A stretch of 64,000 nucleotides of DNA from an uncultured Verrucomicrobiae bacterium (GTDB taxonomy: Bacteria > Verrucomicrobiota > Verrucomicrobiia > Chthoniobacterales > UBA10450). Within the stretch, counting starts at the first letter, position 1. Every line of letters begins with the position of its first letter. This document shows, one piece after another, positions 30,446 through 46,864 of this stretch. A model generated the notes under the pieces. It searched no databases, was not told where the DNA came from, and worked only from the letters and a program-made list of their open reading frames with translations. The DNA is taken from positions 896,001 to 960,000 of the forward strand of contig CAVWPA010000003.1 in NCBI GenBank assembly GCA_963756875.1, given 5' to 3'. Made by a program: the position numbers and the translations under genes.

Positions 30446-30583
30446 GGTAGTGTTCGCTGATTGTCGGCCCCCGGGGGAAATACTGCCCTCACCTGGTCCG
30501 GCGGCTGCCGGATCCTCCTCTCCTGAGGGAGAGGACTGAGGTGAGGGCCAGTCACGTGCAACTGACAATCGACCAACAGTACC
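30446..30583. mobile_element. MITE-like element containing nested repeats
   Basis: Ends GGTAGTGTT / AACAGTACC; flanks AGAGATGG / AGAAATGG; interior CCCTCACC...GGTGAGGG hairpin at 30486-30547. Confidence 0.65.
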
Positions 30584-44342: not shown

Positions 44343-45056
44343 TTAAATGATGGAGGGACACACGCTGCCTGCCTCGCCGAAGCTGTGCGAAGGCGGGTCG
44401 TGTCCCAAATATTCGGCGCCGACGGCGCGGCGCCCTCCAGACGAGCGTTGGATGCGGAAATGCAGTCGCGAAATCGCGGTCTCTTGTTCAAAAGTTTCCA
44501 GCGTCCACGAATTTTCGAGAACGATTTTCAATTGCGCGCTGGCGACCATGTCATGGCGCGTCAAAACGAGGAAGGCCGTGGACGATCCTTCAACCAGGCG
44601 CTGCAAACGATACCAGCTCGCCTGGGGAATTTTACGCAGCTCTTCCGGAACGTTCAGGACGAGATCGAGAACAAGCAGCGGGAAATTGCCATCGCGTAAA
44701 AGAAGATCGGCGGCCTTGATCGCGTGCCACGCTGTGCTGCAACGCGCCCAAAGTATGTGACTTAAACATGCGTTGCCCAGCGGCTGGGGATCGAAAGAAT
44801 CGCGACCATCGATCAACGCGATGTAATACCGGTCGCGCTGCGCGGCTTGAAGAAGCGCATGAATAAGCGACGCGCTGCCCGCACTCATCTGCGGGCTGAT
44901 CAATTCAGTGATGAGGCTTTTAGGCAGACCGCCGCCGATTACTTCATCGAGAAAAGAAACCCCGGTAGCCAAAAACGTCCCGGGAGACAGGGGAGGGCGG
45001 GGAAAACGCTCAGCCAGTAATTTTCGCAGATCGACGACCTTAGCGCTCGCTGCCAT
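44343..45056 (-). CDS. imuA: ImuA (RecA-like)
   Basis: TG...LD...GGGLP, ITEL, degenerate Walker A, IDGRDSFDP, ADLLLRDGNFPLLVLD. Confidence 0.82.
   Translation of the reverse strand: MAASAKVVDLRKLLAERFPRPPLSPGTFLATGVSFLDEVIGGGLPKSLITELISPQMSAGSASLIHALLQAAQRDRYYIALIDGRDSFDPQPLGNACLSHILWARCSTAWHAIKAADLLLRDGNFPLLVLDLVLNVPEELRKIPQASWYRLQRLVEGSSTAFLVLTRHDMVASAQLKIVLENSWTLETFEQETAISRLHFRIQRSSGGRRAVGAEYLGHDPPSHSFGEAGSVCPSII
44351..44439. repeat. REP-like pair (TGGAGGG...CCCTCCA) inside the imuA 3' end, with a 30-bp insert
   Basis: Two mirrored hairpins; the left one is interrupted by CCTGCCTCGCCGAAGCTGTGCGAAGGCGGG (44368-44397). Confidence 0.75.
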
Positions 45057-45084
45057 ACCCAAAGGATGGCACGAAGAATCGACA

Positions 45085-45098
45085 TGTTCAAGTGAACA
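45085..45098. promoter_or_regulatory. LexA box upstream of imuA
   Basis: TGTTC-AAGT-GAACA matches the Verrucomicrobia SOS box and overlaps the -35 of a TTGAAC-17-CATCCT promoter on the minus strand. Confidence 0.9.
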
Positions 45099-45173
45099 TT
45101 TTCACTTCTCGTCCCGTTTTGGTAGGGCGTTCGCCGCGGCGGACGCCGCTTTAGATTGGAAGCCGCTTCGCTT

Positions 45174-45791
45174 TCAGCGCGACTTCCGACGCGCCTGTTT
45201 TCGCACCAGCGAAACCATCACACCCTGGATTTTCAATTCACGGGCCGGAATCAGATTCGGATAATCCGGGTTTTCGGCTTTTAAATACGGGCGGCCACGC
45301 TCCGTCACATAACGTTTCAGCGTTGTTTCACCGTCGATCAACGCCGCCACGATATCGCCGTTGTGCACTTCCTTGCTCTCCTCCAGAATCACAATATCTC
45401 CGTCGAGAATGTGGGCGCCGATCATTGAATCGCCACGCACGCGCAGAGCGAAGGTGCCGCGGCTTCTTGAAACGTTGGCCGAGCGCGTATCGAGAGAAAC
45501 GTGTCCTTCAATGGTCTGCTCCGTCGGCGCCGACATGCCTGCTGGGATCTGCCCATAGATCGGAACGTCTGTGATCCGAACCTTTTGCACCGGTGTCACC
45601 AGGGCGCGTGCTTTCCGCGCGTGTCGGGAGATGAATCCTTTTCGTTCGAGCGCGGCGATGTACTGCATCACCGATGTCTGGCTGGCGAAACCGAAATGAT
45701 TTTGAATTTCGCGCGTGCTCGGCGTGATCCCTTTCTCTCGCTGTTCGCGCTGGATAAAATCGAGAACGTTCTTTTGACGGCCGGTCAGCAT
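45174..45791 (-). CDS. lexA: LexA repressor
   Basis: LT.RQ, PS.REI HTH, Ala-Gly cleavage site (IPAG), GDSM and TLKR. Confidence 0.97.
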   Translation of the reverse strand: MLTGRQKNVLDFIQREQREKGITPSTREIQNHFGFASQTSVMQYIAALERKGFISRHARKARALVTPVQKVRITDVPIYGQIPAGMSAPTEQTIEGHVSLDTRSANVSRSRGTFALRVRGDSMIGAHILDGDIVILEESKEVHNGDIVAALIDGETTLKRYVTERGRPYLKAENPDYPNLIPARELKIQGVMVSLVRKQARRKSR

Positions 45792-45824
45792 TCTTCAGGT
45801 TCGCTCAGAAACATCCCAGCGGCA

Positions 45825-45838
45825 AGTTCAAATGAACA
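45825..45838. promoter_or_regulatory. LexA box upstream of lexA
   Basis: AGTTC-AAAT-GAACA (one mismatch to consensus). Confidence 0.8.
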
Positions 45839-45889
45839 GATACGATAGTTAGACAGACGTTGAATCGTGAATTGGAGCTGGAAAGAGAG

Positions 45890-46131
45890 CCCTCACCTCG
45901 GTCCTCTGCCTGAGGGATAGGAGGACCAGCCTTGGCAACGCTGTGGCTCGGCCAGCGCGAAACGCCCGGTGAGGGTCAGTGGCACACCGATTTGCGACGC
46001 GCGCGCGCAATTTGGATGCTGCGATGGCGCGCTCGCCAACTTTCTCCCTTTCTGGTCGAGCTTGCGCGAGTCCAGCAAGTTCGTTGCGGCGAGGCGCCGC
46101 AACCAGCACGCGAGGCGCGTGCGCTTCCCAG
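45890..46131. repeat. Composite of repeat fragments
   Basis: CCCTCACCTCGGTCCTCT... (45890, same family as 30486) and a GGGAGCGCACGCG-family half at 46081-46131. Confidence 0.65.
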
Positions 46132-46181
46132 AGCTGAGGCGCGCCGGTCCGCCTAACTAACACTTCAAACGAGACAGTGCG

Positions 46182-46688
46182 CTAGCGGCCGGACCGGCCG
46201 CGCGATTTGGATTTTGGCGGCGGCGAGCTGGTGCTTGCGATCAGTTTGCCCGAGGCATCGTACACGGAATAACCGATCTGTTTGCCCGTCCGATCGTATT
46301 TATAAACAATCTTGTTTGCGACGGCGTCGTTTTCTTTCAGGTGGGTTTCCTGTTCCAGCCGGCCGGCGCCATCGTATTGATAGATGCTTTTAAAACGGAA
46401 CTTTTTGTCTGGGCCGAAGAAGATGCCGCTAACGAACCGTCCGGCATCATCGAGCTGGTAGATGGTTTTACCCATTGGCTTGCCGTTGGCACTGGTGGTG
46501 ACGGCTGTTGCCTGGTGGCGTTCATTATTAAATTGGTAGGTGGTGTGCGAGCCGTCGGCGTTGATGGCGACGGTGACGCGCACGGCATCCTTGTTATTGT
46601 CGTCGAGAAGCTGGCTGCGTGTTGTGGAAAGGAATGAAAAAGCGACGACGCAGGGAAAAACGAACAGAAGCGAACGCCGGAGGATCAT
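46182..46688 (-). CDS. Secreted hypothetical protein with YD-repeat-like beta-hairpins
   Basis: Signal peptide; repeats YQLDDAGR, YQYDGAGR, YKYDRTGK and YDASGK. Confidence 0.75.
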   Translation of the reverse strand: MILRRSLLFVFPCVVAFSFLSTTRSQLLDDNNKDAVRVTVAINADGSHTTYQFNNERHQATAVTTSANGKPMGKTIYQLDDAGRFVSGIFFGPDKKFRFKSIYQYDGAGRLEQETHLKENDAVANKIVYKYDRTGKQIGYSVYDASGKLIASTSSPPPKSKSRGRSGR

Positions 46689-46698
46689 CGAGGAGAAG

Positions 46699-46864
46699 TG
46701 TAGAGGCGAGCGTGGTGGCTGCAAGCCCGGGGAGCGCACGCGCCTCGCGTGCTACGCCAGTCCGGCTCGGAATTGCGGCGCCCTCGCCGCGATGTTTCCG
46801 AAGATAAAAAGTTCGCGATGGCGAGGGCGCCATCGGCGGCACGCGCGACGCGTGCGCTCCCCGG
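46699..46864. repeat. REP-like inverted pair with micro-insertion, preceded by a GTAG-REP half
   Basis: CCGGGGAGCGCACGCG ... CGCGTGCGCTCCCCGG; TGTAGAGGCGAGCGT at 46699 resembles the 7754-7777 REP. Confidence 0.8.

Follow-up and report, generated by a model that had tools for sequence, protein, structure and literature searches.

We analysed a 64,000-nt window of DNA from an uncultured bacterium of the order Chthoniobacterales (G000:C3:896001-960000, where G000 is the genome studied; positions without a contig name count from the first letter of the window), in which short palindromic inserts sit inside other, larger palindromic repeats. These inserts are probably micro-insertion elements that resemble the small dispersed repeats (SDR) of cyanobacteria, and at least two families of such very short, GC-rich hairpins, and probably three, can be told apart. 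Family a has a 17-nt core, family c is ~30 nt long and family b ~21 nt, and the three are dispersed in G000 and in related soil Chthoniobacterales genera. Comparison of filled and empty sites shows that the modules reached their sites by insertion of the whole unit. These 17- to 30-base hairpin modules are among the smallest insertion elements seen.

The genome of G000 comprises 2.69 Mb in three contigs, with 57% G+C and a completeness of 87.6%, and it is rich in short GC-rich palindromic repeats. Its top 14-mers include GGGGAGCGCACGCGCCTCGCGTGC (~70 copies), several GTAG-tailed hairpins, heptamer arrays, and the core of insert a, for which the 14-mer count gives 22-23 exact copies. Period-7 tandem arrays number 700 (Tandem Repeats Finder, TRF, low score threshold), with the units AAGCACC, AACGCCC, AAGCTCC, and AATCCGC. 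Heptamer repeats are also known from filamentous cyanobacteria, a parallel to the arrays of G000. The comparison set consisted of 24 genomes of the same family, each from another genus, and 16 genomes from other families of the same order. Matches expected by chance were controlled by counting, in each genome, the pattern read backwards. Three genomes are unpublished (G002, G007, and G014); their counts, and the statements on aspartyl- and leucyl-tRNA synthetases (AspRS and LeuRS) of G014 and G007, rest on these unpublished sequences.

A 17-nt core in the spacer of a two-hairpin repeat

The first-pass annotation of the window had described insert a within a repetitive extragenic palindromic (REP) sequence at 46727, and comparison of the copies bears this out. 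The REP at 46727-46793 reads GGGGAGCGCACGCGCCTCGCGTGC-TAC-GCCAGTCCGGCTCGGAA-TTGCGGCGCCCTCGCCGC and contains two hairpins, hairpin A (GCACGCG-CCTC-GCGTGC) and hairpin B (TTGCGGCG-CCCT-CGCCGC). Between them lies the family-a module (46756..46772, + strand), whose 17-nt core GCCAGTCCGGCTCGGAA has one mismatch to the consensus GCCAGTCCGGCTCGGAC; with the prefix TAC at 46753-46755 it makes up the insert as first described, and the spacing between the hairpins is 25 nt. At the same place, a single REP of the same GGGGAGCGCACGCGCC family with an empty slot (46080..46129, - strand) holds just TGG on the REP strand (CCA at 46103-46105 on the + strand). The filled REP is the left arm of a doublet that resembles the long hairpins known as REPINs (46727..46864, no strand assigned). 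The doublet folds as DNA with -60.9 kcal/mol (z -8.3), and the 17-mer, present in the left arm only, forms a side bulge without a partner in the other arm.

The same slot was examined genome-wide. Hairpin A occurs in 112 copies in G000. The GCGCC core of hairpin B lies 8 nt away in 80 of them and 25-26 nt away in eight, with other spacings or no detected hairpin B in the remaining 24. All eight copies with the longer spacing carry the 17-mer, which adds a net 17 or 18 nt to the slot. A ninth filled copy, at C3:1627442, has a diverged hairpin A with another nested hairpin of its own. In this REP (G000:C3:1627400-1627460), the loop of hairpin A holds the extra nested hairpin GCCCGCCCGTGTGCGGGCGGC, besides the 17-mer in the slot between A and B.

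The consensus core GCCAGTCCGGCTCGGAC consists of the stem GTCCG/CGGAC and the loop GCT. Among 72 distinct copies, it follows a loosely conserved prefix W-A-A/C-Y (W in 54, A at -3 in 50, A/C in 57, and T/C at -1 in 65) and precedes a pyrimidine (C/T at +1 in 69), so that the whole unit measures ~20-21 nt. The AAY prefix is missing from empty orthologous sites and therefore arrives with the element. For the copy of insert a in the window, the DNA fold is weak (-2.4 kcal/mol, z -0.6). A compensatory stem variant, GTGCG..CGCAC, was found in two genera and occurs in G000 at C1:32959. Neither a GTAG nor a CGTC tag was found in the 17-mer or its flanks. The copies, about one per 35-100 kb, are mostly single, the only inverted close pair being C3:1268265/1268363, in which one member has two mismatches. 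The core holds no stop codon in any of the six frames and encodes small, polar peptides (QSGSD, ASPART, PVRLG, SEPDW/G, PSRTG, and VRAGLA).

The fixed position in this REP raises the possibility that the inserts are alternative inter-hairpin modules of mosaic REP clusters, travelling only with their host REP or REPIN. Eight of the 27 copies (<=1 mismatch) in G000 occupy this one slot of one REP family, and three of the eight share hairpin B and a TAAC prefix, which suggests that filled REPs probably replicate as units; insert b, described below, occurs almost only in one composite palindrome family or in c-type elements. However, the majority of 17-mers lie outside that REP, some genomes rich in 17-mers lack it, the insertions in genes consist of the module alone, and family c occupies the loops of several unrelated REP families. 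Stand-alone copies refute such an origin for families a and c, and for the inserts as a whole we consider it quite unlikely.

In-frame insertions inside genes

The 17-mer is also found in frame in five genes, encoding AspRS, LeuRS, GcvP, an agmatine-deiminase-like protein, and a LipL-like esterase, and most orthologues of these genes are without it. Among 30 AspRS loci compared (equivalog NF001750), five are filled in the sense orientation, two in the reverse orientation, and 23 are empty. The sense copies encode six additional residues (..KGQSGSD..) before the DFLWV motif and occur in G000, G015, G017, G011, and, in decayed form, G022. The reverse copies, in G021 and G009, add 11 residues including RPVRAGLA, the translation of the reverse complement of the 17-mer. 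LeuRS (TIGR00396) is filled at four of 25 loci (G000, G010, G012, and G014) and empty at the other 21. Filled proteins read WE-SEPDGQ-N.. (+18 nt, reverse motif) as opposed to WE-NGKHR.. in empty ones, and the inserted 18 nt correspond to one base plus the 17-mer. The LeuRS gene of G000 (C3:191682-194414) holds two more patches with the look of in-frame repeat insertions, QVGSSRCDDRTSQRDVPT at around aa 300 and ADNDEARMTKPESGSSSFRRAPGG at around aa 600, and several alignments of LeuRS orthologues break near aa 440-620.

The remaining three genes provided a view of individual junctions. In the N-terminal tail of GcvP, the site is filled in G000, G010, and G012, with differing junctions (+15, +15, and +18), and empty in G006 and G008; G015 could not be resolved. 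The agmatine-deiminase-like gene is filled in G000 (+15 nt) and empty in all four informative relatives. The site is covered by 42 metagenome relatives, and of the 28 inspected, 27 are empty. The single filled one is the closest relative (83-85% identical), with +21 nt and, behind them, an intact TCGGAG. The G000 copy equals this +21 state minus 6 nt, the loss that would result from slippage between TCGGAC and TCGGAG. The LipL-like gene gained 18 nt in G000, and four relatives are empty. In G012 (locus L134, G012:C3), the same gene carries +36 nt in frame, and the loop of its 17-mer holds AAAT and a second copy of the element. This inner copy is the compensatory variant GCCAGTGCGGCTCGCAC, the same variant as at C1:32959 of G000.

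Further in-frame 17-mers lie in a DEAD-box helicase-like loop (G020) and at a DnaK-like C-terminus (G006), both named from their translated peptides. All gains within genes are in-frame, at +15, +18, +21, +33, and +36 nt. Filled sites display no target duplication relative to empty ones, and 0-6 nt of the target are often lost. In housekeeping proteins, family a has also gone into tails and into variable, apparently surface-exposed loops, with in-frame outcomes only.

A different case of repeats within a frame is found at G000:C3:700925-705364 on the minus strand (locus L074 126-4565), where a single open frame of 1479 aa matches UvrA (equivalog NF001503, in four stretches). The first UvrA ends near aa 1114. 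The frame crosses three complete GGGGAGCGCACGCGCC-family REP doublets; two of them are inside uvrA, and the third bridges to a second UvrA-like N-terminus. Two of the three also carry the 17-mer.

Families c and b

Family c was recognised in a two-hairpin REP of the GGAGGGACACGCGCTGTCGTGTCCC...GGGCGCCGACGGCGCGGCGCCCTCC family (44353..44441, + strand), sister copies of which flank a Y1_Tnp gene at C3:1385666-1385929. The module (44368..44397, + strand), of ~30 nt and with the consensus CTGCCGCGCCGWAGC-NNN-GCGAAGGCGGG, lies in the loop of the first hairpin and divides it as GGGACACACGCTG|TCGTGTCCC. That a 30-mer interrupts this REP had been proposed from the symmetry of its arms, and it is confirmed by uninterrupted sister REPs that read GGGACACGCGCTG|TCGTGTCCC, three of them full (C3:1385420.., 42060.., and 1246140..) and one partial. 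Two of the uninterrupted sisters flank a Y1 gene. The DNA fold of insert c is moderate (-8.0 kcal/mol, z -1.9). G000 contains 18 copies of family c at <=2 mismatches and 23 under a looser pattern. Its sites include the loops of GCGGCGGTCTA|TGACCGCCGC (five copies), the window REP, other GTAG-type REPs, and the CCCTCACC composite.

The latter is a composite palindrome of the form CCCTCACC-slot-TCCTCTCCTGAGGGAGAGGA-CTGA-GGTGAGGG, represented in the window at 30486..30547 (+ strand; fold -24.3 kcal/mol, z -6.1). Its slot is filled by the family-b hairpin GGTCCGGCGGCTGCCGGATCC (30495..30515, + strand, ~21 nt), and the same filler occurs in four G000 composites and in one variant. Insert b folds well as DNA (-8.1 kcal/mol, z -3.9) and, as had been noticed, has the TCCG...CGGA stem in common with insert a. 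The hairpin itself is where it had been described; the comparison behind it, in which a second composite palindrome at 45890 seemed to have only 3 nt in the slot, was misoriented. That copy (45890..45975) has its family orientation on the minus strand and aligns with the family only as the reverse complement (blastn bits 50+24 vs 26+18+16). Once the copy is correctly oriented, the slot proves to contain GGGCGTTTCGCGCT together with a nested hairpin of ~29-31 nt. Three fillers follow CCCTCACC-NGG across the family, namely GGCGCTTCGCGTCC (the commonest), the b hairpin, and GGCGCTTCGCGTCC with a nested 29-37-nt hairpin, as in the copy at 45890. Judged from these alignments, insert b looks like an alternative module of the composite element rather than a proven insertion.

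The nested hairpin at 45923..45953 (minus strand, ~29-31 nt, GGCCGAGCCACAGCGTTGCCAAGGCTGG on that strand) is a fourth one, absent from the first-pass annotation and seen by alignment against the short-type copies. Relatives in a 37-nt version lie at C3:1273416, 1037269, and 1052448. The 29-37-nt hairpin starts with CCAGCC and ends with GGCTCGGC, and it has CCAG...GGCTCGG in common with the 17-mer. One of the two could be taken for the other carrying a GTAG-type hairpin within the loop. Between the repeats of this part of the window, at 45170-45790 on the minus strand, there is an open frame that is LexA-like by reading of its translation.

Distribution across related genomes

The exact insert strings, as first described, are single-copy, which by the first-pass criterion would have refuted the proposal, but their cores are multi-copy. 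At <=1 mismatch, GCCAGTCCGGCTCGGAC occurs 27 times in G000 and is held by 18 of the 24 same-family genomes, with none in the other six. Counts are highest in G010 (80), G008 (42), G017 (40), G012 (38), G011 (24), G015 (23), and G006 (17), followed by G021 (15), G009 (12), and G014 (11), with 1-6 copies in eight others. Outside the family, two of the 16 genomes have one match each, with one mismatch. Chance similarity or an assembly or adapter artefact has a negligible probability as the source of these copies. Some do lie at contig ends of fragmented assemblies, but only ~0.02 matches (<=1 mismatch) would be expected for a 17-mer in 2.7 Mb, the backwards control gives 0-1 per genome, and copies stand in frame in conserved genes of independent assemblies.

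Family c (<=2 mismatches) was found in 13 of the 24 family genomes and in none of the 16 outside, with a control of 0. Family b is low-copy and noisier (control 0-2), and its matches at two mismatches are partly noise. The pattern of the host REP gave 29 matches in G000, 28 in G021, and 11 in G004, a genome without the 17-mer, and no match in G012, G006, G015, and G009, which carry 12-38 17-mers; these counts are lower bounds, because the search pattern, which contains one Y, picks up the 5-nt-loop subtype alone. The distributions of host REP and 17-mer differ, which indicates that the 17-mer is not merely part of that REP. In G017, 30 of the 17-mers lie on the + strand and 10 on the - strand, and 16 of the 40 fall within 0.23 Mb of a 4-Mb contig (G017:C2:1.03-1.27 Mb), 14 of these being co-oriented.

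The occupancy of orthologous sites was compared with a FastTree tree of AspRS and LeuRS in which the insert columns were masked, a tree thus built from the same two genes as the occupancy data. The high-copy genomes group together, with a support of 1.0 for the core clade, and G006, G014, G013, and G011 join this clade with weak support. LeuRS occupancy is patchy, as the gene is filled in G010 and not in its sister G008 (support 0.96), and filled in G014 and not in its sister G006 (0.994). For AspRS, the filled genomes include G000, G015, G017, G011, and G022, whereas G010, G012, and G014 are without this insert. This patchiness points to repeated insertion at one site, clean loss, or allele transfer.

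Targets and conservation of the core

Outside genes, the targets of the 17-mer are the A/B slot of the REP (8-9 copies), hairpin loops, and heptamer arrays. A GGTAGGG-type REP also hosts the 17-mer, and a sister copy has a b-like hairpin at the same place. For five of 39 17-mers (<=2 mismatches), a period-7 TRF array is found no more than 25 nt away, as compared with ~3% expected. Five or more different palindromic repeats carry family a or c in a loop or a spacer. The earlier proposal of a class of extremely small mobile hairpins that target other hairpin repeats stands in part. Hairpin modules are inserted in other repeats, with filled and empty sites for families a and c both within and between genomes. 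Hairpin repeats as exclusive targets were not borne out, as family a lies near heptamer arrays and in frame in at least five genes.

Comparison of orthologous filled sites gives 40 differences in 357 core positions and 376 in 1260 positions of the 30-nt flanks, in a pool that includes the decayed G022 copy and a misaligned GcvP flank of G012 and in which kin are not independent. These figures suggest that the core is held tighter than the adjoining, largely coding, DNA. As a rival explanation, the 17-mer might be a functional recognition site, either a site for a dimeric protein or an RNA or DNA hairpin signal, kept exact and spread by selection and not by selfish movement. Its core is identical in genera whose AspRS proteins are only ~76-86% identical, it diverges ~3 times slower than the flanks, and it is kept at 17 of 17 positions at an orthologous intergenic site in G001 and G016, genomes with 1-3 copies each. 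The 13-nt GTCCG-GCT-CGGAC would be an inverted repeat of the type bound by dimeric proteins, and the compensatory stem variant and the co-oriented cluster in G017 are also consistent with such a role.

Set against this, new sites come as 15-21-nt insertions and not as point changes, both orientations are found at the same AspRS loop, and copies sit inside unrelated repeats and inside one another. Some copies also decay, with 6 of 17 positions changed in the AspRS of G022 and two further changes in the LeuRS of G012, and six family genomes do without it. A search of Rfam gave no match in four 17-mer contexts (6.9 kb, E <=0.1). We hold spread by selection as a recognition site to be rather improbable; that the 17-mer hairpin is also under selection is a real possibility.

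Search for a mobiliser and evidence against insertion

Several observations weigh against the view that the inserts are insertion elements, and they begin with the enzyme that would move them. The first-pass annotation had suggested an HUH-like mobiliser or one related to the REP-associated tyrosine transposases (RAYT). The corresponding explanation is that the inserts are miniature derivatives of the IS200/IS605 or RAYT type, moved as single-stranded DNA by a Y1 (HUH) enzyme and inserted 3' of a short target motif. The lack of target duplication, the small hairpin whose 5' foot bears the four nucleotides GCCA, and the A-rich tetranucleotide on the left flank are in line with this, and patchy occupancy would suit precise excision. 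There are six Y1_Tnp (PF01797) matches in G000, one flanked by the 46727 REP family and one by the 44353 REP family. Matches were obtained in 35 of 40 sampled family genomes, and the strongest of the family (E 1e-20 to 1e-30) are in genomes that bear the 17-mer.

Other evidence points away from a Y1 enzyme, whose presence does not go along with that of the 17-mer. G006, which is 99% complete and carries 17 copies of the 17-mer, gave no Y1_Tnp match, and ten full-length Y1 genes (in G009, G010, G012, G016, G017, and G021) are flanked by other hairpins. In the C3 replichore of G000 (GC skew, 460-1740 kb), 10 17-mers are oriented + and 8 -, hence without strand bias, while in G017 the ratio over the whole genome is 30 + to 10 -. 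The AAY prefix is not found in empty sites and hence is no target motif, and the junctions are imprecise (+15, +17, +18, and +21). The suggested HUH/RAYT mobiliser was thus not borne out, and a Y1-type derivative is in our judgement unlikely. The proposed search for enzyme genes flanked by the inserts gave no candidate mobiliser, as none is bracketed by the 17-mer with any consistency. The stretches between close 17-mer pairs were considered as a possible autonomous element and rejected; they encode an unrelated 510-aa protein, a protein that we take to be DUF899-like, and uvrA, and no transposase.

The remaining points concern the sites themselves. Boundaries defined from filled and empty sites, which had been proposed as a check, are reproducible, but the 5' side varies by 1-4 nt. 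In two of the five coding targets, the sequence already looks like the element's 3' end (TCGGAG for the deiminase gene and GGCTCGGAC for the AspRS gene of G016), and this likeness hints at homology-guided patching rather than transposition. The slow divergence of the core is explained equally well by selection on a functional motif and by re-copying. For family c, ~7 copies were placed by eye in TCATTCG and GTTGGGC arrays, and TRF puts just two of 23 beside heptamer arrays. Independent movement of insert b may never have happened. Finally, neither recent mobility nor within-species polymorphism was seen, in data that comprised one sequencing run with 0.06 of the words and metagenome contigs, none of them near-identical and the best with 83% protein identity.

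Taking both sides together, we still favour micro-insertion elements, and we postulate a trans-acting activity that would recognise the small hairpin in single-stranded or extruded DNA and copy or move the unit into sites that are themselves prone to single-strandedness. The places hit are REP spacers and loops, the surroundings of heptamer arrays, and the loop within a further copy of the element itself. As far as co-occurrence tells, this activity would not be a dedicated Y1/HUH transposase, and the exact core would persist because it is re-copied continually or because the hairpin is under selection. A bolder proposal, which we offer tentatively as possible rather than probable, is that the 17-21-nt hairpin is a self-standing insertion unit below any described mobile DNA in size. 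A host activity other than Y1 would write it into DNA prone to single-strandedness and remove it cleanly, and selection or re-copying would keep it letter-perfect in more than ten genera. As a side effect, loops of 5-7 residues (QSGSD, ASPART, and SEPDG) would arise in essential enzymes, including two aminoacyl-tRNA synthetases.

Comparison with known systems

The closest described elements are the SDRs of Nostocaceae cyanobacteria, with intragenic REPs next. Elhai et al. reportedly described, in 2008, eight SDR families of 21-27 nt, found nested inside further repeat types as well as inside tandem heptamer arrays. Later accounts give SDR5 as 21 nt long and of unknown function (PMC13756078), place it precisely within the HIP1 palindrome, after its third nucleotide and before its fourth (PMC4390886), and state that, of the HIP1-rich cyanobacteria, only Nostocaceae yielded SDRs (PMC5861425); SDRs are also cited in PMC3116915 and PMC2884548. 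The verrucomicrobial modules are likewise short and dispersed, the 17-mer with 17 nt (~20-21 with its prefix) and 27-80 copies per genome, and family c with ~30 nt and 18-23 copies. They also insert inside other repeats and exist in filled and empty versions, a likeness drawn from the description of SDRs and not from their sequence, and no function or mobiliser is known for either group. They differ in phylum, in their 17-nt core that is identical across many genera, and in an insertion that is less precise and falls in frame in housekeeping genes.

Di Nocera, De Gregorio & Rocco (2013, PMC3733652) reported palindromic REPs within the reading frames of genes for DNA repair, tRNA synthetases, and RNA helicases. 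The verrucomicrobium Opitutus terrae has them in its two uvrA genes, DNA ligase, and RNA helicases, and other species in tRNA synthetases. Palindromic DNA within reading frames is thus already a known kind, and the uvrA frame of G000 also reads through REP doublets. Our literature search gave no account of palindromic elements in Udaeobacter, and for in-frame ones in Verrucomicrobia only PMC3733652 was relevant. The same paper also cites the Rickettsia palindromic elements (RPE) as selfish palindromic DNA in frame in functional genes. The 17-mer is likewise an in-frame palindromic insert, but RPEs add tens of residues and the 17-mer 5-7. In length, RPEs are ~100-150 bp.

In E. coli, the slot between REP hairpins of bacterial interspersed mosaic elements (BIME) holds a short or a long inter-hairpin motif. 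The fixed slot between hairpins A and B resembles this arrangement, yet the 17-mer also occurs alone at non-REP sites and in genomes without that REP. BIMEs are cited in PMC2884548. As in the REP/RAYT system (Bertels & Rainey 2011, PMC3116915), REPs here serve as hosts or targets of other elements. Unlike REPs, the 17-mer has no GTAG or CGTC tag, is shorter than their stated 20-40 bp, is mostly single and not in inverted doublets, does not flank a RAYT gene, and is present in a genome without Y1_Tnp; the host REPs at 46727 and 44353 do flank Y1 genes. IS200/IS605 elements share the absence of target duplication with the 17-mer, which differs in having no fixed target motif in empty sites (AAY being absent there). 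The DNA uptake sequences and uptake signal sequences (DUS/USS) have a density near one per kilobase and arise by point mutation. The 17-mer, in contrast, is far sparser and arises by insertion. What sets the present elements apart is the 17-nt core, the absence of a GTAG or CGTC tag, the independence from REP and Y1, the identity across many genera, and the self-nesting.

Implications

To our knowledge, no enzyme is known for units of ~20 nt such as the cyanobacterial SDRs, and the mechanism of their spread has been open since SDRs were described. The Chthoniobacterales lineage provides a second, independent system, with clean natural experiments on how a ~20-nt unit spreads. These comprise essential genes that are filled or empty across genera, self-nesting, a compensatory variant, and a high-copy genome without Y1. 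With them, the question can be tested through comparative profiling and through biochemical work on a hairpin of 17 nt. The inserts also create small indels in marker genes (those for aminoacyl-tRNA synthetases, uvrA, and gcvP) and break assemblies, which affects the annotation and phylogenomics of a very abundant group of soil bacteria.

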